64,000 nucleotides of DNA from Candidatus Forterrea multitransposorum CG_2015-17_Forterrea_25_41 (GTDB taxonomy: Archaea > Iainarchaeota > Iainarchaeia > Iainarchaeales > CSSED10-239), in assembly GCA_009392915.1 (NCBI GenBank), contig CP045477.1:32001-96000 (forward strand), given 5' to 3'. Shown here in pieces: positions 5,618 to 46,551 of this stretch. Position numbers and translations under genes: made by a program. Numbering within the stretch: the stretch's first letter is position 1; every line of letters begins with the position of its first letter. Under the pieces are notes generated by a model. The model was not told the origin of the DNA, did no database searches, and saw only the letters and a list, made by a program, of their open reading frames with translations.

Positions 5618-5699
5618 GCAGAGGTGGCGGAGTGGTCAAACGCGCCAGCCTTGAGAGCTGGAGCCTTGCGCTACACGAGTTCGAATCTCGTCCTCTGCG
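5618..5699 (+). tRNA. tRNA-Ser (anticodon UGA), class II with a long variable arm
   Basis: Cloverleaf as read: acceptor GCAGAGG/CCUCUGC; anticodon stem CCAGC/GCUGG with loop CUUGAGA; T-arm ACGAG-UUCGAAU-CUCGU; long variable arm. Confidence 0.8.
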
Positions 5700-5730
5700 C
5701 TTTATCTTTTAAAATATAGGAATTTTTATT

Positions 5731-6063
5731 ATGATTAAAGAAAACATTTCTTTTCAAGATTTTTTAAAACTTGATATAAGAATTGGAACAATTGTTGAGG
5801 CTGAAGCTGTTGAGGGTTCTGATAAATTAATAAAATTAATAATTGATTTTAAAGATTTTAAAAGACAGATTTTAGCTGGTATTAAAACAAAATATCAACC
5901 AACTGATTTATTAAACAAACAAATTCCTGTTATTGTAAATTTAGAACCTAGAAAAATGATGGGTTTTGAAAGTCAAGGAATGATCTTAGCTGTTGGAGAT
6001 AAAACTTTAGATGCTTTACTTTTACCATCTGAGCCTGTATCGGAAGGCTCGATTGTACACTAA
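5731..6063 (+). CDS. tRNA-binding domain protein (Trbp111/CsaA/EMAP-II-like OB fold)
   Basis: 110 aa. The pattern DIRIGTIVEAEAVEGSDKLIKL...ILAGIK...GMILAV is characteristic of the Myf/Trbp111 tRNA-binding domain. Confidence 0.7.
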   Translation: MIKENISFQDFLKLDIRIGTIVEAEAVEGSDKLIKLIIDFKDFKRQILAGIKTKYQPTDLLNKQIPVIVNLEPRKMMGFESQGMILAVGDKTLDALLLPSEPVSEGSIVH

Positions 6064-6084
6064 TTTTTTTTTAAAACTAAAAAT

Positions 6085-6166
6085 GCAGAGGTGGCGGAGT
6101 GGTCAAACGCGCAAGCCTGGAAAGCTTGAGCCTCGTGCTACGCGAGTTCGAATCTCGTCCTCTGCG
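6085..6166 (+). tRNA. tRNA-Ser (anticodon GGA)
   Basis: The acceptor, D- and T-arms are nearly identical to the tRNA at 5618. Anticodon stem CAAGC/GCUUG with loop CUGGAAA. Confidence 0.8.
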
Positions 6167-6197
6167 CTTTTTTCTTTTTTAATTTAATATTTATTTT

Positions 6198-6286
6198 GCA
6201 GAGATGGCGGAGTGGTCAAACGCACAAGTTTCGAAAACTTGATTAAGGTTTTTTCCTTTACATGAGTTCAAATCTCATTCTCTGCG
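6198..6286 (+). tRNA. tRNA-Ser (anticodon CGA) with an AT-rich variable arm
   Basis: Acceptor GCAGAGA/UCUCUGC; anticodon stem CAAGU/ACUUG with loop UUCGAAA; variable arm AAGG-UUUUUU-CCUU; T-arm AUGAG-UUCAAAU-CUCAU. Confidence 0.7.
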
Positions 6287-6462
6287 TAGCTGGTTTCGGT
6301 CAGCTAGCACCCAATGATTTTGCGTTTGTTAACGCTTATTTAAACTTTCTTTTTAAAAGAAGTGATTTTCCCCCAAAACTTTTTTTCTTTAAAAATTGTG
6401 TTTTAAAAATTTTTAATCTATTTTATATCTATTTAAAATACTTTTGCCTCTCTTTAATATTT

Positions 6463-13398: not shown

Positions 13399-15465
13399 AT
13401 GTTTTGGTTTTCTTTTTTATATATGTATCTTAATAAAAATGCTATTTCTCCATTAATAGCAAGCATTTTAATTATTGTTGTAGTTGTTGCAGTTATTGGT
13501 GTGATTCTATTATGGGGTAAAAACTTTACAAATGAAAGTTTAACTTCCACTTATACTTTTTCACAAGATAAAACTGTTTCTGATTTTGTTTGGCAAGATG
13601 ATATTACTGGTAAAAATCTTTTTATAAAAAACACACATATATCATTAAGTAAAACTATTATTGGTTATAAAATAAACAGTTCCTTAGATTATGCTTATCT
13701 TAATAAATATCATTATCTTGATGAATCTTTTTTATTATCTAAAAATTCCATTGCTCAATTAACTTTAGGTTGTGTTCCAGAAAAGAATTTTTCAATTGAA
13801 CTTTTAACAGACTCTAATGAATATATTTCTTTTCCTGTCACTTCTAAGTTTTTTGATCCTTCAGAATGTACTTTTTCTTTTTCAATAACTTCTCCTTTGG
13901 AAAATTCAATCAATGCTTTAAATTCTAGTATTTCATTTACTTCTGAAATTTTAAATTCTTCAGGTACTCCTTCTTGTACTTGGATTTCTTCAATTGATGG
14001 TACTTTTTCAACATCTTGTGATGCAACTTATTCTTCTTTATCTTCTGGTTCTCATGATATTAATTTAGTTGTTGAAGATTCTGGTGATATTTTAACACAA
14101 TCAACTTCAATTATTGTAAAAGATTCTTTAGAAAGTATTATTTCTACTCCTTCAAATTCATCAAATCATTTATTTAGTGATACAATTTCATTTAGTGGTA
14201 CTGCAGATAATAATTTTGGTTCTCACACTTGTTCTTGGACTTCTTCTTTAGATGGTTCTCTTTCAAGTGATTGTAGTTTTAGTTCTAGTTTATCTCCAGG
14301 CACACATACTATTACTTTACAAGTAACTGATTCTCTTGAAACAGCATCTTCAAATATTTCTATAGATGTTTATGCTTTATTAGTTGCTTCTGTTTCTCTT
14401 CCTGCTAATAATTCTACAAAATCTTTAGGAAGTCCTATCTCTTTTTCATCAAGCATTTCTGGAGGCGATGGATCTTATTCTTGTAGTTGGACAGATAATG
14501 GTTCTCCTTTAAGTTCTAGTTGTTCATTTAGTCATACTTATCCACAAGGAAGTTGGTCTGAATATCAAGATATGCCTCAAGGTAGAGATTATCATGATTG
14601 TGTAGGTGTTGGTGATAAACTATATTGTTTTGGAGGAGATGATTCTACTTATAATGTAGAAAGAACTACTCAAATTTATAATTCTACAACAAATACTTGG
14701 TCTTTAGGTGCAAATATGCCTGCAGATAGAGAGCTTCCAGCATGTAGTTATTATAATGGAATAATTTATTGTATAGGAGGATTTAATAGTTCTTGGGATT
14801 ATGTTAATTCAAATTATGCTTATAATATTTCTACAAATTCTTGGTCTAGTAAAACTTCTATGCCAACAGTAAGAGCTGAACATGATTGTACTGCCTTAGA
14901 TGGAAAAATTTATTGTTTTGGTGGAAATAAAGATGGTGGAGGTGCAAGTAATCTTCTTGAAATATATAATATTTCAACAAATTCTTGGTCAACAGGTACA
15001 AGTTCACCTTCAGGAAAAGCAAATCATAATTGTGAGGGTTTAAATAATAAGGTTTATTGTATTGGTGGTACAACTACTACTTTAATATATGATGTTTTAT
15101 CTGATTCATGGTCTACAGGTACAACTATCTCAACATCAAAATCATCTGGAGCTTCTGATTTATATGGTACTAAAATTTATTATGGAGGAGGTTCTTCTGC
15201 TGCACTTTTAGTTTACGATACTGTTTTAAATAGTTGGTCAACTCTTGCTAGTTTACCTTATTCTAACAGATCTTATATAGGTTGTGGAATTGCAGATAAT
15301 ACTTTTTATTGTGCAGGAGGAGATTCAAGTCAAGGTAGAGAAACATACATGGATAAATTACATGGATATTCTATAGGTGCTACAGGAACACATGAAATTG
15401 AATTAAATGTAAGTGATGGTTATGGTCAAACTGCTTCTAATACAATAAATATTAATGTTCAATAG
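13399..15465 (+). CDS. Archaeal pilin-N (class III signal peptide) protein with Cys-containing Ig-like repeats and a Kelch-type beta-propeller
   Basis: The N-terminus NKNAISPLIASILIIVVVVAVIGVILLW matches the archaeal type IV pilin N-terminal domain. There are four repeats of ...SCSWTxxxDGSxSSxCSFS.... Kelch-like repeats follow (YCFGG...YN..TN.WS, YCIGG..., KIYCFGG...). Confidence 0.6.
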   Translation: MFWFSFLYMYLNKNAISPLIASILIIVVVVAVIGVILLWGKNFTNESLTSTYTFSQDKTVSDFVWQDDITGKNLFIKNTHISLSKTIIGYKINSSLDYAYLNKYHYLDESFLLSKNSIAQLTLGCVPEKNFSIELLTDSNEYISFPVTSKFFDPSECTFSFSITSPLENSINALNSSISFTSEILNSSGTPSCTWISSIDGTFSTSCDATYSSLSSGSHDINLVVEDSGDILTQSTSIIVKDSLESIISTPSNSSNHLFSDTISFSGTADNNFGSHTCSWTSSLDGSLSSDCSFSSSLSPGTHTITLQVTDSLETASSNISIDVYALLVASVSLPANNSTKSLGSPISFSSSISGGDGSYSCSWTDNGSPLSSSCSFSHTYPQGSWSEYQDMPQGRDYHDCVGVGDKLYCFGGDDSTYNVERTTQIYNSTTNTWSLGANMPADRELPACSYYNGIIYCIGGFNSSWDYVNSNYAYNISTNSWSSKTSMPTVRAEHDCTALDGKIYCFGGNKDGGGASNLLEIYNISTNSWSTGTSSPSGKANHNCEGLNNKVYCIGGTTTTLIYDVLSDSWSTGTTISTSKSSGASDLYGTKIYYGGGSSAALLVYDTVLNSWSTLASLPYSNRSYIGCGIADNTFYCAGGDSSQGRETYMDKLHGYSIGATGTHEIELNVSDGYGQTASNTININVQ

Positions 15466-23211: not shown

Positions 23212-23327
23212 GTTAGCGGCCATAGGGATGGAGAAACACCTGGACCCTTTCCGAACCCAGAAGTTAAGTCTATTGCCGTTTTAGTTCGCTGTTAGTTCAT
23301 GCTAGTAGCGTCTTTAAAGCTGCTAAC
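23212..23327 (+). rRNA. rrf: 5S rRNA (stand-alone)
   Basis: The terminal helix gttagcggc...gctgctaac pairs. The archaeal 5S core is present: ccgaacccagaagttaag. The element is GC-enriched relative to its flanks. Confidence 0.75.
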
Positions 23328-23537
23328 ATTTAATATTTTCTATTTTATAAAAAAGAATTATTAAAAGCTATTTTTTTTAAAAATAATTTTTCTACAAGCA
23401 AAACTTATTTTTTTATAAATAATTTAGTTCTTGTTTAGATAAACTTAAATTAAATCTATTTTTTAAAATTAAATATCTTTTAATATATTTCCCTACACAT
23501 TTATTTATTATAATTATTTATTTAAGGGGAAAAATAT

Positions 23538-25490
23538 ATGATAGATACAAAAACAGAATCAAATGCATTTAATACTTTTTTTACAAAACATAAAAAAATT
23601 ATATTTATATTACTTATTTTTTTAATGGCTTTTGCTGTTAGGGGACATCTTTTAAAATATGACAATATGTTTGAATTTGATACATATTGGCACTTAAGAA
23701 TGACAGGTTATGTTCTTCAAGGAGATTTACCTGATTATGATCCATTAGGTTTCTATGCAGAAGGAGGAACTCCACTTTCAGATAGACCCTCTTTTGTATG
23801 GTATTTAACTTCATTTTTATATATTTTATTTACTCTCGGAGCTCCCTACAATAAAGCTTTACTTATGGAGTTTGCAAGGTTTTTGCCAGCAATCTTTGGT
23901 GCTTTAATCTCAGTTGCAATGTATTTTTTAGGTAAAGAAATTTATAATCGTAAAGCTGGATTTATAATGGCAATAGTTACAGCTACAATTCCTGCATTTG
24001 TTTATAGAACCATGGCTGGTTTTTATGAAGAAGATGCTTTAGGATTTTTATGGATGATTTTAGGTTTTATTTTCCTTGTTAAAGCAATAAAAAATATGCA
24101 TTCAAGAAAACAAAATATAAGATACTCTTTATTATCTGGTTTGTTTTTTGGACTTATGGCTTTTACTTGGTCTGCATTTATTTTGATACCTTTAATTATA
24201 GTTTCATTTTTAATTGCAAATTTAATATACATGGCTTATAAGAATTATTCAAATAAAGATATTGCTTTATTTTTAAAAACCATTGTAATTTCTTTTGTAA
24301 TTTTTGCAGCTTTAGCTTCAATTGCTCAACCTGGTTGGGTAAAGACTACAGGTAATTATGTAATTGATAATATACCTTTAAATAAAGAAAACATAGATAA
24401 ACTTTCAAATAATGTAACTTCAGAAACTGATGTTGTAAAAGCATCTGTTGGTGAGGAAAATACAGGAAAGCAATTTTTCTTATATAAGTATAGTTTCCTT
24501 TTATGGATTCCGTTTGTTGTACTTTTAATAATGCCACTTAATTTATTATTTTCAAAAAAGAAAGATAATTTAACTTTATTACTTTTCTTTTGGATTTTAA
24601 TAACTTTATTGATGGCTTGGTCAAAATTAAAGTTTACATTTTATTTTGGAATACCGATAGCTGTATCTGCTGGATTTTTAATTTATTTTATAAATGAATG
24701 GATTAATAAAAATTCTACAGTTTTAAGAAAAAGAGTGTTTGCAATATTTATTGGTTTAATATTATTAACATCTATTGCTGCAGGTACACATGAAGTTTAT
24801 TCTAAAGTTCCACATATTGTTGAAAAAACAGATTGGAGGGAATCAATCTTTTGGATTGCAGAAAATACGTCTCCTGATGCAAAAATATTTAACTGGTGGG
24901 ATTATGGTCACTGGATAACTTATTTTTCAGAAAGAAAGGCCAGTACTGATAATACTAATTCCAATATATCAGGTACTAGTGACTTTGGATTATTTATTTT
25001 AAGTCAAGATTTAAATTATACAGCAAATCTTATGAAAAAATATGATGCTGATTATTTTATAGCAGATAATGGTTATTTTAATAGATATGCTTCATTTGGA
25101 TCTTACGGTTTTATTACTACAAATTATCAAGACCCAAGAATTAAAAGTTATGTTTCATTTTCTTTAGATTGTTATCCTGGCTCTGTAGGTGATGGTAAAC
25201 TTGCATACAAATGTGGAGAAAATATATTTACAGAAGAAGAATTTAATTCATTTCCAACAGTCTGGAATGATAAACCAAAAGATGTAATGAATGGAGTTCC
25301 AATCTTTATGTATCGTTTAGAAGATAACTCTAAATTATTTATTTTAAATACATCTTCAAATAATTCTACATTTGCAAAAATATGGTTTAATGAAAATATT
25401 CATTCTCAATTATTTTCTTTAGCTTATGAAAATGGGGCTGTAAGAATCTATGAAGTTAATAAAGAAAAAGTGAACGAGTATGCAGAATAG
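23538..25490 (+). CDS. aglB: Oligosaccharyltransferase AglB (STT3 homologue)
   Basis: 650 aa with a polytopic N-terminus and the WWDYGHWI (WWDYG) catalytic motif. Confidence 0.85.
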   Translation: MIDTKTESNAFNTFFTKHKKIIFILLIFLMAFAVRGHLLKYDNMFEFDTYWHLRMTGYVLQGDLPDYDPLGFYAEGGTPLSDRPSFVWYLTSFLYILFTLGAPYNKALLMEFARFLPAIFGALISVAMYFLGKEIYNRKAGFIMAIVTATIPAFVYRTMAGFYEEDALGFLWMILGFIFLVKAIKNMHSRKQNIRYSLLSGLFFGLMAFTWSAFILIPLIIVSFLIANLIYMAYKNYSNKDIALFLKTIVISFVIFAALASIAQPGWVKTTGNYVIDNIPLNKENIDKLSNNVTSETDVVKASVGEENTGKQFFLYKYSFLLWIPFVVLLIMPLNLLFSKKKDNLTLLLFFWILITLLMAWSKLKFTFYFGIPIAVSAGFLIYFINEWINKNSTVLRKRVFAIFIGLILLTSIAAGTHEVYSKVPHIVEKTDWRESIFWIAENTSPDAKIFNWWDYGHWITYFSERKASTDNTNSNISGTSDFGLFILSQDLNYTANLMKKYDADYFIADNGYFNRYASFGSYGFITTNYQDPRIKSYVSFSLDCYPGSVGDGKLAYKCGENIFTEEEFNSFPTVWNDKPKDVMNGVPIFMYRLEDNSKLFILNTSSNNSTFAKIWFNENIHSQLFSLAYENGAVRIYEVNKEKVNEYAE

Positions 25491-26508
25491 TGTTTTATTC
25501 TTTATATTTTTAGGTTTTTCTTTTTTCTTTTCTTTATTTTTATCTTTATTTTTAGTTCCAATGTTTATTAAAATTATTTCTAAGACTTCATATTTAGGAA
25601 AAGATATGAATAAATACAATAAAAATTTAGTTTGTGAACTTGGAGGAGTTCCAGTTTTTTTAAGTTTTATTTTTTCAATTTTTTTAATAATGTTATTAAA
25701 TTTTGTTTTAATTTCAATTTTTAGTTTTAATTTTTCAGTAATTGATTTCATTCAGTTTAGTTTAATTATTATTGCTTTATTTTCAATCTTTTTTGTAGGA
25801 TTTATTGATGATATTTTAGGTTGGAAAAAAGGAATTAGTCAAATTCAACATTTTATATATCCTTTAGTATTTTCAATTCCTTTAATCATATATGCTTTAA
25901 TTTATGAAATTACAACTCTTTATGTTCCTTTACTAGGTGTTTTTAATGTTGGCTTACTTTATGCATTTATTCTAGTTCCAATTGCATTTACTGCAACTAC
26001 AAATCTTTTAAATTTACTTGCTGGATTTAATGGTCTTGAAGCTGGTATGGGAATTATAGTTTTTTTAACAATTTCAATTTTTTCTATTTTTCAAGGAAAC
26101 ATTACTCTTGTAATTATTTTATTTGCATGGATTGGTGCACTTTTAGGTTTTTTAAAATTTAATAAATTTCCATCTAAAATGTTTCCAGGAGATATTATTA
26201 CTTTAATTAATGGATCTTTAGTTGGAATTTCTGCAATTGTTTTAGGTTTAGAATTATTAATTGCTTTTTTAATTGTTCTTTTTATAATTGAATTTATAAT
26301 TAAAGCAAAACACAAGTTTAAAACAGAATGTTTTGGATTAATTTCAAAATCTGGAATTATAAAACCAAATCCTAAGGGTGGTTCTTTAACTCATGTAGTT
26401 TTAAGCAAAGGAAGGTTTACTGAAAAGAAATTAGTTAATGTTTTTTATATTTTACAAGGAGTAATTTCTGCAATTTCATTAATTCTTTTCTTTATTGTGT
26501 ATATTTGA
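25480..26508 (+). CDS. GT4 / MraY-WecA-family UDP-GlcNAc:dolichyl-phosphate GlcNAc-1-phosphate transferase (AglH-like)
   Basis: Motifs IGFIDDILGW and NLLNLLAGFNGLEAG; polytopic membrane protein. Its start overlaps the aglB stop. Confidence 0.7.
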   Translation: MQNSVLFFIFLGFSFFFSLFLSLFLVPMFIKIISKTSYLGKDMNKYNKNLVCELGGVPVFLSFIFSIFLIMLLNFVLISIFSFNFSVIDFIQFSLIIIALFSIFFVGFIDDILGWKKGISQIQHFIYPLVFSIPLIIYALIYEITTLYVPLLGVFNVGLLYAFILVPIAFTATTNLLNLLAGFNGLEAGMGIIVFLTISIFSIFQGNITLVIILFAWIGALLGFLKFNKFPSKMFPGDIITLINGSLVGISAIVLGLELLIAFLIVLFIIEFIIKAKHKFKTECFGLISKSGIIKPNPKGGSLTHVVLSKGRFTEKKLVNVFYILQGVISAISLILFFIVYI

Positions 26509-41850: not shown

Positions 41851-42162
41851 TTATTTTTTAGGACCTTTCTTAATTTTTGGTTTTCTTTTTTTACAAGCTT
41901 CATTTTGAATAACAATTTCTTTTGTTAATTTATCATTCTTTCTTTGAAGACTTGCAATCTCACATAAAATAATTTCAGCAAATTCTTTATTTCCTTTATT
42001 TGATCTAATCATGTCTTTACAGTATTCTATGTTAATGTTATTAAGTTCAATTTTTTCAGAATTAGAAATTGTACCTACTCTATTTTTTTCTTGCAATTGA
42101 TTTTTTCTTTTTGCAATTGGTGATGATGAATGATTCCATTTTTGATTTAATTCAGTAGTCAT
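41851..42162 (-). CDS. Basic hypothetical protein (103 aa)
   Basis: It overlaps the upstream ORF by 4 nt (ATGA), which suggests translational coupling. Confidence 0.35.
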   Translation of the reverse strand: MTTELNQKWNHSSSPIAKRKNQLQEKNRVGTISNSEKIELNNINIEYCKDMIRSNKGNKEFAEIILCEIASLQRKNDKLTKEIVIQNEACKKRKPKIKKGPKK

Positions 42163-42551
42163 TTTTGCATCTCTTCTTTAATGATTTTTTTCACTTGTTC
42201 AATAGTTGTATACTCTAAAGGATTAATATTATCAATTACATATTTCATTTCTTTTAAATCTTCAGCTCTTGCATATCTTTTTGAAAACATCTCAAGATTT
42301 GATTCAATCCCTTTCATTCTGTTTTCAATATCTTTCATTTTTTTAAAAATTTCTTCAATTTTTTCATTAGATGCAAAAGAGCCTTGTGAATCTGAAGTAT
42401 TGGCTGAAGCAATCTTTTTATTTAAAACAAGGATGTTTCTTCCAAGTATCTTTTCATTATGCACAAGATATTTTATCTTTTGTCTTAAAACAAGAAGACT
42501 TGATTGTAAAGCTTTAATATCTTGATACACATTCTGTGATTGATCAACCAT
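42159..42551 (-). CDS. Coiled-coil hypothetical protein (130 aa)
   Basis: Heptad-rich sequence, co-oriented with the downstream ORF and coupled to it. Confidence 0.35.
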   Translation of the reverse strand: MVDQSQNVYQDIKALQSSLLVLRQKIKYLVHNEKILGRNILVLNKKIASANTSDSQGSFASNEKIEEIFKKMKDIENRMKGIESNLEMFSKRYARAEDLKEMKYVIDNINPLEYTTIEQVKKIIKEEMQK

Positions 42552-42745
42552 AGTTAGTTCTTCTCTTTTGTAAATATTTTATATATTTATATAGTAATAG
42601 ATAATATTTAAAGATGTTTGTTTTATTTTTAAAGATTTCTTTTTTTAAATTAACTTATAATAATTTAGTTCAGTTATTAAATTAAATACCTTTATAAACT
42701 ATTTGTCTCATAAATATATAAAAATAAATGAGGTGTTAAAAGGAT

Positions 42746-43102
42746 ATGAATAAAAAAATATTAAATATTTTTGGAGTACTTTCTGTTTTAGTTTTTTTAA
42801 TGTTTATTTCATTAAACTTAAGTGCAGAGAGATTTGATGTTACTGATATTTCTTACTCTTATGTAAGTTATAATTATCCATATTACCCAAATGGTCAATA
42901 TTATAATAGTTACTATAATTATTATGATTATTATATTCCAACAGGTTATGTAAATTCATATACAGGCTATATTAATTATCCTGCTTACTCAAATTATGTT
43001 CCAACTTACTATAACACTTCATATGTAACTTATCCTTCATACTATAACAACTCAATCAGTTATGGAAGTCCAGAGGCATATGTTTCTTTTAGTTGGCAAT
43101 AA
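42746..43102 (+). CDS. Small secreted tyrosine/asparagine-rich low-complexity protein
   Basis: Signal peptide MNKKILNIFGVLSVLVFLMFISLNLSA. The mature region is about 35% Tyr, e.g. YNYPYYPNGQYYNSYYNYYDYYIP.... Confidence 0.5.
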   Translation: MNKKILNIFGVLSVLVFLMFISLNLSAERFDVTDISYSYVSYNYPYYPNGQYYNSYYNYYDYYIPTGYVNSYTGYINYPAYSNYVPTYYNTSYVTYPSYYNNSISYGSPEAYVSFSWQ

Positions 43103-43129
43103 ATAAAAAAGAGGATTTAAAGATTTATT

Positions 43130-46100
43130 ATGAACTATAAATATTTTTTTGTATTTTTATTAGTAGTTTTATTTTCATCAATGGTATTTTCATACACAAT
43201 TGGTTTTGATTATGCTGAAGTTAGAACTACAAGTTATCCTAACTATCTTAATTATCAATATGCTCATTACTATGATAATATTGATCTAAGATATGGTGTT
43301 TATGGAAGTGGAATTTCTTCTCCAGTAACAATAATTGTTTCTCCAAAAGTTTATGGAATAACAACTACTGGTCAAAGAGTCTTTGTTCATAATATACAAA
43401 CTCATTCTTTTTCAATGAATCCTTCTTCTTTTTATACTTATAGTTATAATCCAATGTTTTCTTTTGATCCTGCATATCAAAGTTATGAAGTTGTTTTAGA
43501 TCTTCAAAGTTCAGATGGATCTTTTAATAATTCTGTAAGTAGATATGTTTATTCTCAAGGAACAAATCCAAACCCTGGAGGAGATGATCCTACAGGTGAT
43601 GATCCTAATGTAGTTAGTTGTGATGATTTTTATGTTTCAGGAATGGAAGATATTTATTTAGATGAAGATTCAAGAGAATATTATAATCTTTATTTAGTAA
43701 ATTCTGTTGACTTGCCACTTACAATAACTTCAGTTACAGTTTCTCCAAATAATCCTACTAACTTAGAAATTGAAGATATTACTTATCCTTTTACAGTTTC
43801 TGCTCTTCAAACAAGAAGTGCACAAATTGAACTTTTTACAGATACAGTTTCTTCTGATTATTCAAATAGTTTTCAAATAGAAGTTAAAGGTAAATATGAT
43901 AATTCTTTAACTTGTGAAAAAACATATAATGTTAATTATAGAATACTAGATGCTGAACTTGAAAATAATGGTTCTTGTAGTGATATAAGAATTTTAGATG
44001 ATTATTTTACAATGAGTGATAATTCTTCTAAAACTTTTGAAATTGAAGTTTCAAATGCTTCTCAAGATTATTATTTTGAAGTTGATGATATTGATTTAGA
44101 TACTACAAATGATTCAATAATTGAAGCTAGTGTTAGAAACACAATTGATAAAATATATACAGATTCTTCTAAAATTTTAAAAATAAATGTTTCTTCAGAT
44201 GACACTTCTTTTTATAGAACTGAAAAAATTGATTTAGAACTAACAGGTTATTTAAAAAGAGAAAACAGAGAAGATAAAAAATGTAGAATAAGAGAAGATG
44301 TTTCAATAAGAGTTTCTCCAGATTCTTCAACTGGAAATACTTCAAATGAATGTGATGATATAAAAATATATACAAGAGATGTTTTCCAAGATTCTCAAAT
44401 AACAGAAAACTACTCTCTTCAAGAGGGTTTTTATATTTATAATGGAACTAATAAAAAATTTACTGTATCAGGTATTAACTATAAAGACAATACTATGTAT
44501 GCAGATATCTTTTCAAAATCTTTTGATTATACTCTTTATCCTAGATCCTCTAATGCTTTAAATTTTGATATAAGAACAAGTGAAGTTTCAGAAAATAAAC
44601 TTTCAAATGCAGAAATTTCTATTCAAGGATATTTTGAAGGTGGACTTTCTTGTAGTTATTCAGATATAACTTCAAACTTTAATTTAACTATAAGAGAAGA
44701 AAATGATTTTTGTTCAAATGTAGGTATTTATGATGACAGTTTTGTTGAAGGTGAAAATTATTTTACAGTTTATAATAACACTAATAAAGACTTTACTGTA
44801 AATGATATTATTTCTCAAAATTCAGTTAACTCAAATGTAGGTGTGATTGATTCTTCTTTTAAAGTTTTAAAAGATTCACAAAAAACTTTTAGAGTTGGTT
44901 CTTCAGGAAATGGTAGTTTTGAGCTTTTAGCTAAAGGTGTTTTTTCAGATGGCACTTCTTGTGACTATACTCAAACAAGCAGTGGTTATTTCAATAGTGA
45001 TTCTGGTTATGATTTTTCAGATACTTCTTGTGAATTTGAATTTAATTATCCAAATGTAAAATATATCTCTTTAAACGGAGACTCTCTAAATTTTGATTTT
45101 AGAAACTTAACTGGAAAATCTGGTGAGATTAGACTTTCTGCAGTTGGTGCTGTAATTGAAGATCCAATTATTAAGTTTTCTTCATATTCATCTTTTAATA
45201 AAGAAATAGATCTTTTAAATATTAAAAATCCAAAAATGGTTCTTTATACAATTGAAATTTACGGTTGTTCTAAAAAATCATATTTTACAAATCTTTATCC
45301 TTTAGGAAATTCTATTCAAGGAGATGTTTCATTTTTAACATATCCTAGTAATTTAATTTCAACTAAAGATAAATTTATAAGTTCTTTTTCACTTAAAAAC
45401 TCAAGTAGTTTTTCAGAAGATGTTGAAATTAAATTTTCAGGTTTTACAAGTGCATTTAATTTTGTATCTTCTCCTTATCCATTAAACCCAAATACTTTCT
45501 CATCTTCAGATAATGTTTCAACAGTTACAATAAATCCAAACTCTACAAAAAATATTTATTTTGGAGTTGATGTTTTAGAAAATGCAGAATATAAAAAATA
45601 TAATGGATATATTGAAGTTTATAGTAATAATAAATTATTATTTAAAGAGCCTTTATCAATAGATAGATCAATTACTACTAATAATTTATTAGTAAATACT
45701 ATGGTTGAAAAGACATCTGTTAAAAATACTGTTCTTTTAACATTTACTTTTGAAAACAAATTACCTGACCTTACAAGAGAACTTTATTTATCTTTTGAAG
45801 ACGAGAATAGTTTTGAAGTAGATGGTAATAGAAATATATCTGTTGCACCATTAAGTGTACTTGAAAGAAGCTTTACTGTTAAATATAATGAAGGTTCTTT
45901 ATTTAAGTATAATTTAATAGATACAGATAATTCTTCTCTTGCATATTCTGGAGAAGTAGATTTAAAAGAAATTGATAATTCTTCAAATCTTTTATCTGGA
46001 TTTTTTACTCTTTCAGATACAAAAGGATTTATATTTGCAATTGTTCTTATATTACTTATAGCTTTAATTATTTTCTTAATAGTTTATGGAGATAAATCTA

Positions 46101-46273
46101 GAGCTAAAAGAAAACAAGAAACTAAATCAGTTTTAGAAACACAAGAAAAAATAAAAGAAGAAATTAGAAAAGATAATTTTTCTAATATTACTAAGTCTGA
46201 GATTATAATAGGAAATAAGCCTATTATAAAGCCTGCAGAACCAAGACAGATTACTTTAGGTGAGCTTGATTAA
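43130..46273 (+). CDS. Large secreted cell-surface protein (S-layer/adhesin candidate) with a C-terminal TM anchor
   Basis: 1047 aa. Signal peptide, a Tyr-rich N-terminal module, a PNPGGDDPTGDDPN linker, then long beta-rich S/T/N-rich repeats. C-terminal hydrophobic helix GFIFAIVLILLIALIIFLIVYG plus a basic tail. Confidence 0.55.
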   Translation: MNYKYFFVFLLVVLFSSMVFSYTIGFDYAEVRTTSYPNYLNYQYAHYYDNIDLRYGVYGSGISSPVTIIVSPKVYGITTTGQRVFVHNIQTHSFSMNPSSFYTYSYNPMFSFDPAYQSYEVVLDLQSSDGSFNNSVSRYVYSQGTNPNPGGDDPTGDDPNVVSCDDFYVSGMEDIYLDEDSREYYNLYLVNSVDLPLTITSVTVSPNNPTNLEIEDITYPFTVSALQTRSAQIELFTDTVSSDYSNSFQIEVKGKYDNSLTCEKTYNVNYRILDAELENNGSCSDIRILDDYFTMSDNSSKTFEIEVSNASQDYYFEVDDIDLDTTNDSIIEASVRNTIDKIYTDSSKILKINVSSDDTSFYRTEKIDLELTGYLKRENREDKKCRIREDVSIRVSPDSSTGNTSNECDDIKIYTRDVFQDSQITENYSLQEGFYIYNGTNKKFTVSGINYKDNTMYADIFSKSFDYTLYPRSSNALNFDIRTSEVSENKLSNAEISIQGYFEGGLSCSYSDITSNFNLTIREENDFCSNVGIYDDSFVEGENYFTVYNNTNKDFTVNDIISQNSVNSNVGVIDSSFKVLKDSQKTFRVGSSGNGSFELLAKGVFSDGTSCDYTQTSSGYFNSDSGYDFSDTSCEFEFNYPNVKYISLNGDSLNFDFRNLTGKSGEIRLSAVGAVIEDPIIKFSSYSSFNKEIDLLNIKNPKMVLYTIEIYGCSKKSYFTNLYPLGNSIQGDVSFLTYPSNLISTKDKFISSFSLKNSSSFSEDVEIKFSGFTSAFNFVSSPYPLNPNTFSSSDNVSTVTINPNSTKNIYFGVDVLENAEYKKYNGYIEVYSNNKLLFKEPLSIDRSITTNNLLVNTMVEKTSVKNTVLLTFTFENKLPDLTRELYLSFEDENSFEVDGNRNISVAPLSVLERSFTVKYNEGSLFKYNLIDTDNSSLAYSGEVDLKEIDNSSNLLSGFFTLSDTKGFIFAIVLILLIALIIFLIVYGDKSRAKRKQETKSVLETQEKIKEEIRKDNFSNITKSEIIIGNKPIIKPAEPRQITLGELD

Positions 46274-46551
46274 GTTTTTCTTAGAGGGAAATAACAAACC
46301 ATTTATAAAGTTTTCTGTTCAAAGATTATTATATAATGAAGAATTAATGAAGCTTTGTAGACTGTGTGTTAACATAGACAGTTATTAACCATTTTTTTCA
46401 AAAATTTGGTTAACATATAAATGCAAAGCTTTTTTTAAAATAATGATTGTTTTTTAATTTTTTTTAAAAAACATTTGTAAAGTTTAAAAATTGTTTTATA
46501 TAAAAAAAAGTGTAATTTATTTTGTGTAAAAAATATTAATGTGTAACATAT

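Follow-up and report, generated by a model that had tools for sequence, protein, structure and literature searches.

A conserved tyrosine-rich, lysine-free protein family with an export signal, encoded beside a putative S-layer-type surface protein in Iainarchaeota

The window analysed here is a stretch of 64,000 nucleotides from Candidatus Forterrea multitransposorum (contig CP045477.1, positions 32,001 to 96,000), in which a small open reading frame (ORF) of 118 codons encodes a protein with a signal peptide and an exceptional content of tyrosine, directly before the gene for a 1047-amino-acid surface protein. This locus raises the question of whether such a composition is just a by-product of AT-rich DNA and, if it is not, what the protein would do outside the cell. 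Archaea of the DPANN group cannot be cultivated by themselves and live through contact at their surface, and to our knowledge almost nothing is known of their cell envelopes. A literature search returned nothing relevant joining Tyr-rich proteins, archaea and the surface layer (S-layer) or cell surface, and Iainarchaeum envelopes were found only in passing mentions. As described below, the small ORF is a real, conserved gene under purifying selection. The reading that we favour, at a little under an even chance, is that its product is an accessory protein, exported by Sec and cut by signal peptidase, which shares a transcript with the principal surface protein and acts together with it outside the cell. 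The features of the locus are collected in Table 1.

A conserved tyrosine-rich gene

Cleavage at the predicted site, between LSA and ER, would leave a mature part of 91 residues. Among these are 28 Tyr (31%), 13 Ser, 10 Asn, 7 Pro and 6 Thr, and the five amino acids together make up 70% of the mature protein, which is acidic. Lys, Leu, Cys, His and Met are completely absent from it, and the single Arg is at residue 2. The background calculated from the 74 long ORFs of the window is 4.2% Tyr, 11.4% Lys and 9.7% Leu, and the runner-up among the 91-residue stretches in the window, with 14 Tyr, is the N-terminus of the adjoining 1047-amino-acid protein. Without Lys and with its lone Arg at position 2, the mature protein would therefore be invisible to tryptic proteomics, and its absence from existing tryptic metaproteomes is uninformative.

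The base composition of the window is 25% GC, at which TAT is a favoured codon. This bias is one argument for regarding the ORF as non-functional, whether as a chance ORF in AT-rich DNA, as a decaying partial duplicate of the 5' end of the large gene, or as an upstream ORF that tunes translation. However, random sequence never yielded such an ORF. When 100 random sequences of 64 kb were generated from a second-order Markov model of the window, a mean of 0.44 ORFs of at least 100 amino acids was obtained per sequence, and none of these exceeded 10% Tyr. AT-richness is therefore no explanation of the ORF. When the small gene was subjected to Tandem Repeats Finder (TRF), the sole result was a 36-nt TAT-rich run, and a tandem-repeat protein was thus ruled out. 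A Tyr occurs every 1–3 residues, with recurring PxY, PTY and PSY elements, and the Tyr spacing is just mildly non-random.

About 15 members of the family are known, with 45–92% identity. Public assemblies contain the exact 118-amino-acid protein in 93 indexed blocks, among them a contig of 663,598 bp, and a word-index search gave five homologues (46–69% identity). When 1.84 billion representative proteins were searched with a profile, nine matches were obtained, two of which were spurious hits to repeat proteins; the seven true members were restricted to Iainarchaeota-type sequences. More copies were read directly in loci L008-L013 and L016-L020/L025. The mature regions of 14 members (~1330 residues) contain 29.9% Tyr on average, 8.6% Pro, and neither Lys nor Cys, and Asn, Gln, Tyr, Ser and Gly account for ~60% of the mature sequence. 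The ratio of nonsynonymous to synonymous substitution rates (dN/dS) against the closest relative, L012, was 0.14 for the small gene and 0.16 for the large gene. At the distant locus L011, which has 39% GC and a large protein 22% identical to that of the window, the region upstream of the surface-protein gene (L011:1059-1613) encodes a 184-amino-acid signal-peptide protein with 65 Tyr (35%). This protein is rich in Asp and Glu and keeps the sequence GYRNPYT, and it had no homologues in a word-index search. Because Lys is absent family-wide and the 39%-GC relative still has 35% Tyr, the richness in Tyr and the avoidance of Lys were evidently selected on the protein and are not by-products of AT content.

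No Pfam family matched the small protein at E<=0.1 and no NCBIfam family at E<=1, and the family profile had no match in the PDB sequences at E<=10. Homology to known Tyr-rich wall and coat proteins of the CotC/CotU and GAM56/82 type was likewise not found in Pfam, NCBIfam or PDB. We read the family as a lineage-restricted orphan, an archaeal variant or analogue of Tyr-rich envelope proteins. One database entry of 145 amino acids (P0001) has a 27-residue extension past the usual ...FSWQ end. The same gene as read at L017:1743-2108 has its stop in the usual place, and the extension is more likely a sequence or assembly variant than a feature of the family.

The first 27 residues have the layout of a Sec-type signal peptide. 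The small residue Ala at position -1 and V/I/L at -3 are kept in 14 of 14 family members, and the sequence of the hydrophobic region drifts. The peptide is probably removed by signal peptidase I. Three motifs, separated by Tyr-rich stretches of varying length, follow in the mature part (alignments A1, A3 and A4). The N-terminal motif lies directly after the cleavage site, with the family form F(D/E)(V/I)TDISYSYV (summarised here as FDVTDISYSYV); T33, Y37 and S38 are invariant, and F30, D31, D34 and Y39 are at least 90% conserved in the 13 sequences of alignment A3. Y72 and G74 are invariant in the central motif. In the C-terminal motif, which has the family form N-x-(I/L)-S-Y....(V/I)-(S/T)-F-S-W-(Q), W117 is invariant, and N102 and F115 are at least 90% conserved.

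The structure of the small protein was predicted by AlphaFold2 (AF2) from 11 sequences, with a predicted local distance difference test score (pLDDT) of 53.8. A helix at residues 3–23, in the signal peptide, was confident, and a beta-hairpin (103–108/111–116) was obtained at a pLDDT of about 60. Residues 37–100 had no fold, with a pLDDT below 50, and because of these values the model was unusable for a fold search.

The predicted hairpin bears on a reading in which the protein is the subunit of a self-assembling fibre or functional-amyloid-like matrix, forming a coat or threads independently of the large protein. The N-terminal strand would pair with the C-terminal hairpin of the next molecule in a donor-strand-like, head-to-tail manner, or the Tyr/Asn/Ser core would stack in a cross-beta form. 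The prion-like composition (~60% N/Q/Y/S/G), the conserved termini around a middle of variable length, and a Sec signal, as in the subunits of archaeal thread and bundling pili, fit such a fibre. On the other hand, the Pro residues (8.6%) dispersed in the core are unfavourable to long cross-beta segments, TRF detected no curli- or solenoid-type imperfect repeats, and AF2 neither paired the termini nor folded the protein. Moreover, no nucleator- or usher-like gene was found in the cluster by Pfam and NCBIfam scans, and a fibre leaves the strict linkage to the large gene, described in the next section, unexplained. We regard this reading as unlikely.

Several other candidates were rejected. A curli-like or functional-amyloid repeat protein does not agree with the TRF result, the Pro content and the missing AF2 fold of residues 37–100. 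A type IV pilin-like protein with a class III signal peptide was excluded, as the start MNKK-ILNIF... has no G/A/S at the would-be -1 position, and the poorly conserved hydrophobic region is followed by a (V/I/L)-x-A site in all members. The small protein has no C-terminal transmembrane (TM) segment or basic cluster, and was not accepted as an archaeosortase substrate. It is not SlaB-like in architecture, since it ends in ...VSFSWQ without a hydrophobic segment and AF2 gave just the C-terminal hairpin there. A precursor of a ribosomally synthesized and post-translationally modified peptide was ruled out on sequence features.

The original prediction had placed the ORF and its 118 amino acids exactly, and its estimate that about one-third of the mature part is Tyr agrees with the count. 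The signal peptide that it called clear has the Sec-type layout with the conserved cleavage-site residues. Its description of the protein as almost entirely repeats was mistaken. As for low complexity, the Tyr-rich bias stands, and the impression of a featureless sequence does not, as three motifs are conserved family-wide. Similar composition-biased proteins, which it proposed to look for in related archaea, were found as the family itself, and these orthologues clearly answer its reservation that the ORF might not be conserved in close relatives.

Linkage to the large surface-protein gene

A metagenome scan with the large protein gave 12 further loci. In the loci designated clade A, with a large protein at least 38% identical to that of the window, the Tyr-rich gene is kept directly upstream. 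Every clade-A locus that was examined, at least 10 in number, has the small gene before the large one, and the spacer in 10 of them is 24–62 nt. Clade B consists of L021-L024, L026 and L027, with a large protein 30–35% identical. At L027, the divergent coiled-coil gene abuts the upstream region of the large gene.

The 48-nt promoter block before the small gene is nearly invariant in nine loci, the proteins of which are 53–92% identical, and it is better conserved than the coding sequence (alignment A7). Its TATA box, TTTATAAA, is invariant across the nine aligned loci, and a purine block of the GAGG(T/G)G type is at the equivalent place of the Shine-Dalgarno-like sequence in seven of them. No oligo-T run was found between the two genes. 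Archaeal transcription is established to terminate at oligo-T tracts, and the runs located 3' of the large gene would be the sites of termination. At the clade-B locus L021, from which the small gene is absent, an element CCTTTATAAAC.ATTTG.CTCATA is located directly before the large gene. Because the same promoter element directly precedes the large gene there, the small gene of clade A sits between the promoter and the large gene, and this position is therefore strong indirect evidence for co-transcription. We infer that the two genes form an operon in which the small gene is the first cistron. A split gene or read-through was also considered and rejected, as the two genes share a reading frame in the window but differ in frame at most other loci. 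In the small gene, the fractions of TAC and AAC among the Tyr and Asn codons were 0.21 and 0.31, compared with 0.17 and 0.22 in ribosomal-protein genes and 0.07 and 0.13 in other genes. Since these counts are small, the ribosomal-protein-like codon choice hints only weakly at good expression.

The large protein has a signal peptide, an N-terminal domain followed by an acidic Pro/Gly linker, about seven immunoglobulin (Ig)-like or beta-sandwich domains, and a C-terminal TM helix. The mean pLDDT of its AF2 model was 69.5, with values of 70–90 over residues 164–945. Ten invariant Cys, paired ~100 residues apart, and 21 N-glycosylation sequons are present. A tail composed of [LM][ST][GA]F[FL][ST][LF], a TM helix and a basic cluster was found in 10 of 12 tails from both clades, and L008 and L021 read TALFS. 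Clade-A proteins have ~50 extra residues past the basic cluster, ending in KQITL.ELD, and clade-B proteins end right after the cluster. The PGF-CTERM model did not match the large protein at E<=1, and the motif reads (S/T)GF(F/L) instead of PGF. A tripartite C-terminal signal of motif, TM helix and basic residues is the architecture of sortase and archaeosortase substrates (PMC6098224). The large protein fits the layout of an archaeosortase substrate, because this tail is conserved and a neighbouring gene encodes a member of the archaeosortase family (TIGR04178). The 180-amino-acid neighbour, the synteny of which is kept in L001, L003, L004, L010 and L012, matched PF09721 weakly, and it probably processes the large protein. 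The (S/T)GF(F/L) tail and this enzyme may be an undescribed pair of sorting signal and archaeosortase in Iainarchaeota. These features point to the large protein as a glycosylated, archaeosortase-processed surface protein, putatively of the S-layer type.

The N-terminal domain of the large protein is its best-conserved segment, with 63–76% identity to orthologues and ~45–60% elsewhere, and it is also distinct in composition, as the other segments of the ectodomain have 4–8% Tyr and 2.5–8.7% Lys. AF2 predicted an all-beta domain with low confidence; its sequence is conserved and is not of low complexity. Because the membrane anchor is C-terminal, this domain should be the outermost, membrane-distal part. 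The Tyr content of the domain is 12–16% in clade A and 15–22% in clade B.

The mature starts of the two proteins are alike, with FDVTDISYSYVSYNYPYYPN..QYY in the small protein and FSIDYSYVNTDTGPEYLNIQYGNYY in the clade-B large protein, and the clade-B domain starts with PF(S/N/A)I(D/N)YSYVNTD, which resembles the N-terminal motif of the small protein. When the two families were compared by hhalign with their signal peptides included, a probability of 47% (E 1.9e-4) was obtained, mostly from the signal peptides. Without signal peptides, the score was 15.3 (E 0.065) over 30 columns from both mature N-termini, and this score was reached by 14 of 200 column-shuffled controls; the reversed alignment scored 16.4. 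Thus, homology between the small protein and the N-terminal domain, and hence an origin of the small gene by partial 5' duplication, is not supported, and the Tyr-rich, Lys-poor composition that they share is real. The original prediction had correctly seen that the small gene adjoins the gene of a large surface protein, and its similar Tyr-rich module in that protein is right in composition (14.5% Tyr, 0.8% Lys) and is unsupported as sequence homology, the profile score being within the range of the controls. The tight linkage of the two genes agrees with its suggestion that the proteins interact or are co-assembled. The protein, with 1047 amino acids, is large and not giant as it had claimed.

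These comparisons also bear on the non-functional reading of the ORF. That both proteins open with a signal peptide and F-D-x-x-x-x-S/Y-Y-x-V would suit a decaying duplicate, and the absence of the small gene from clade B would suit a dispensable remnant. However, the likeness is not significant without the signal peptides, and the small gene has its own Shine-Dalgarno site. The low dN/dS with motifs conserved as amino acids, the persistence of Tyr-richness at 39% GC, and the total avoidance of Lys, which only selection on the protein explains, are also opposed to it. The non-functional reading is very improbable and is largely refuted.

Possible roles at the cell surface

In the favoured reading of the small protein as an accessory of the surface protein, Sec export followed by a signal peptidase I cut would release an acidic product of ~90 residues with ~30% Tyr and no Lys or Cys. 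The N-terminal strand, a central GYxNPYTGY turn and the C-terminal beta-hairpin would dock it onto the surface layer, most plausibly at the membrane-distal, Tyr-rich and Lys-poor N-terminal domain of the large protein. The variable stretches of Tyr, Asn, Ser and Pro would then be multivalent sticky spacers, cementing or coating the lattice by aromatic stacking and hydrogen bonds. Oxidative Tyr-Tyr cross-linking would be possible but optional.

A cohesive mechanism of this kind has known counterparts. Tyr acts as a sticker in prion-like, low-complexity domains, such as the Sup35 N domain and the low-complexity domain of FUS, and the mussel protein Mfp-1 has the decapeptide AKPSYPPTYK. Like these, the small protein is rich in N/S/Y/G/Q and poor in charge, with a Tyr every 1–3 residues and PxY, PTY and PSY elements, and by this analogy a multivalent cohesive mechanism is plausible. 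It differs from them in that it is extracellular, prokaryotic and not Gln-rich, that it lacks the Lys on which the Mfp proteins depend, and that it has three motifs, strictly conserved and fixed in position.

Several observations weigh against the favoured reading. No Tyr-rich small ORF was found in the flanks of the clade-B genes that were examined, and since clade B has the large protein without the small gene, the small protein must be an accessory that is dispensable for such an envelope. In a streamlined genome of 0.66 Mb, adjacency is weaker evidence of coupling than it is in larger genomes, and the codon usage of the large gene is not ribosomal-protein-like. The identity of the large protein as an S-layer-type protein is putative, and the middle of the small protein has no predicted fold. 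Expression, secretion, cleavage and binding are all predictions from sequence.

A more specific form of the favoured reading makes the small protein a second S-layer component, dedicated and stoichiometric, in DPANN archaea of the Iainarchaeota. As a Lys-free mortar of ~30% Tyr, it would lock the distal N-terminal domains together by Tyr stacking or covalent Tyr-Tyr links, and the gene might have been born by partial duplication of the 5' end of the large gene. We give this form a small chance; if true, it would be the first Tyr-based envelope cement described in archaea.

The presumed docking on the N-terminal domain would place the small protein outermost, the anchor being C-terminal, and this suits a different role, as an adhesin or glycan-binding coat of a DPANN episymbiont for a host, mineral or organic surface. 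Here, Tyr would stack on sugars and the large protein would merely display the small one. Surfaces rich in Tyr, Asn and Ser commonly bind carbohydrates, and the genome of ~0.66 Mb suggests host dependence. However, such proteins usually evolve fast, whereas the small gene has a dN/dS of 0.14 and keeps three motifs invariant across relatives that are ~50% diverged. No lectin or carbohydrate-binding-module fold or family was recognised in Pfam, NCBIfam or PDB, and both host and ligand are hypothetical. A role as an adhesin is therefore improbable in our view.

The small protein was also compared with Tyr-rich wall and coat proteins, namely CotC and CotU of Bacillus subtilis, GAM56 and GAM82 of Eimeria, and those of the Toxoplasma oocyst wall. 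These likewise have very high Tyr and low complexity and belong to an extracellular proteinaceous layer, and CotC and CotU are small like the 118-amino-acid protein. The enrichment found here (31% Tyr against a background of 4.2%, with a conserved signal peptide) is of the same kind. CotC and CotU are also rich in Lys and Asp, whereas the archaeal family has no Lys at all. There is no sequence relationship with any of these proteins, and the archaeal protein has a Sec signal and is encoded in an operon with an Ig-like surface protein. Spore coats, oocyst walls, eggshells and the walls of plants and algae are the cases of Tyr-based wall construction known to date, to which archaea would be added if the small protein indeed cements the layer. 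The function of the wall and coat proteins is tied to multimerisation and cross-linking, for CotC/CotU of the B. subtilis coat (PMC7944565) as well as for the Tyr-rich oocyst-wall proteins (PMC2726925, PMC4776368).

By analogy with these spore coats and oocyst walls, the small protein could be a covalently cross-linked wall protein, with its Tyr oxidised to dityrosine or dihydroxyphenylalanine-quinone by a peroxidase, laccase or tyrosinase. Dityrosine cross-linking, next to adhesion, is what the original prediction had in mind. With ~30% Tyr and neither Lys nor Cys, Tyr is its sole abundant reactive side chain. Nothing in the sequence demands covalent links, however, and no oxidase or peroxidase was found in the Pfam scan, which covered 20 ORFs in a part of the window and was the only search for such enzymes. 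In addition, the relatives were sampled in metagenomes of groundwater and lakes, and their tiny genomes are of a fermentative type, in which oxidative chemistry is doubtful. We consider obligatory cross-linking distinctly unlikely.

As a partner of the large protein, the small protein can be compared with known archaeal S-layer loci. In slaA/slaB of Sulfolobales, a large exported multi-domain surface protein is likewise encoded beside a smaller exported partner and co-transcribed with it, as is presumed here from the order in at least 10 loci. SlaB is, however, a membrane-anchored coiled-coil stalk of ~400 amino acids, whereas the small protein is of low complexity and has neither a TM anchor nor a coiled coil. 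The S-layer glycoprotein (SLG) of Haloferax volcanii, with ArtA, likewise has a C-terminal motif, TM helix and basic tail on the large protein, and here too an archaeosortase-family gene is near (PMC6098224). The present locus differs in the (S/T)GF(F/L) motif in place of PGF, in the clade-A tail that runs ~50 residues past the basic cluster, and in the putative status of the large protein as an S-layer protein. The archaeosortase-family gene, the small Tyr-rich protein and the Ig-like surface protein with a non-PGF sorting signal make this locus a compact, testable envelope module.

Neighbouring genes and other features of the window

The order rpS8e, archaeosortase-family gene, two small opposite-strand genes, Tyr-rich gene, gene of a ~1000–1050-amino-acid protein and rpL3 operon is conserved.

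Table 1. Coordinates of the features in the window
Feature	Coordinates	Strand	Remarks
Tyr-rich secreted protein gene (predicted)	42746..43102	+	ATG 42746, TAA 43100-43102; 118 codons, stop included in coordinates
Sec-type signal peptide, aa 1-27	42746..42826	+	MNKK, 19-residue hydrophobic core, LSA before the cut and E after it; layout read from sequence
N-terminal motif FDVTDISYSYVS, aa 30-41	42833..42868	+	
Central motif GYVNSYTGY, aa 67-75	42944..42970	+	family consensus GY(V/I)NPYTGY
C-terminal motif N-x-I-S-Y....V-S-F-S-W-Q, aa 102-118	43049..43099	+	ends at C-terminus
Conserved promoter block, 48 nt	42668..42715	+	GTTCAGTTATTAAATTAAA, TATA box TTTATAAA (42691-42698), then CTATTTGTCTCATA
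Shine-Dalgarno-like GAGGTG	42730..42735	+	10 nt before small-gene ATG
Shine-Dalgarno-like AGAGGA of large gene	43110..43115	+	within 27-nt intergenic spacer
1047-aa surface protein, putative S-layer-type	43130..46273	+	second gene, presumably co-transcribed with small gene
N-terminal domain of large protein, aa 22-145	43193..43564	+	membrane-distal
Tripartite sorting-signal-like tail	45992..46114	+	LSGFFTL (aa 955-961), TM helix (966-986), basic cluster KSRAKRK (989-995)
Oligo-T runs	46275..46398	+	T5 46275-46279 and T7 46392-46398; 3' of large gene
Exosortase/archaeosortase-family membrane protein, 180 aa	41304..41846	+	TIGR04178 44.9 bits vs cutoff 23; 0.9 kb upstream of small gene
103-aa protein	41851..42162	-	no family assigned
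130-aa coiled-coil protein	42159..42551	-	no family assigned
5S rRNA gene	23212..23328	+	
AglB	23538..25490	+	STT3 oligosaccharyltransferase
GT4 glycosyltransferase gene	25480..26508	+	overlaps AglB gene
688-aa protein	13399..15465	+	PKD domain, Kelch beta-propeller
Three tRNA-Ser genes	5618..6287	+	anticodons tga, gga, cga

The two small opposite-strand genes are syntenic in clades A and B. The 130-amino-acid coiled-coil protein is encoded divergently from the Tyr-rich operon, and its first ~45 residues are almost identical where the surface protein is just ~55% identical. The 103-amino-acid protein has a very basic C-terminus. At L008, a bAvd-like gene and a reverse transcriptase gene (RVT_1) are located ~3 kb upstream of the surface-protein cluster (L008:691-2468), and this pair suggests a diversity-generating retroelement.

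Because the window contains the genes for AglB and a GT4 glycosyltransferase, machinery for N-glycosylation of the sequon-rich surface protein is present. A lone 5S rRNA gene is just upstream of the AglB gene. The 688-amino-acid protein, with its PKD domain and multi-blade Kelch propeller, is unusual for a genome of ~0.66 Mb and may be another surface protein. Finally, three tRNA-Ser genes are clustered near the start of the window. Because the third overlaps the called start (6262) of an ORF for a class-I Trp/Tyr tRNA synthetase, the true start of this ORF is probably downstream.

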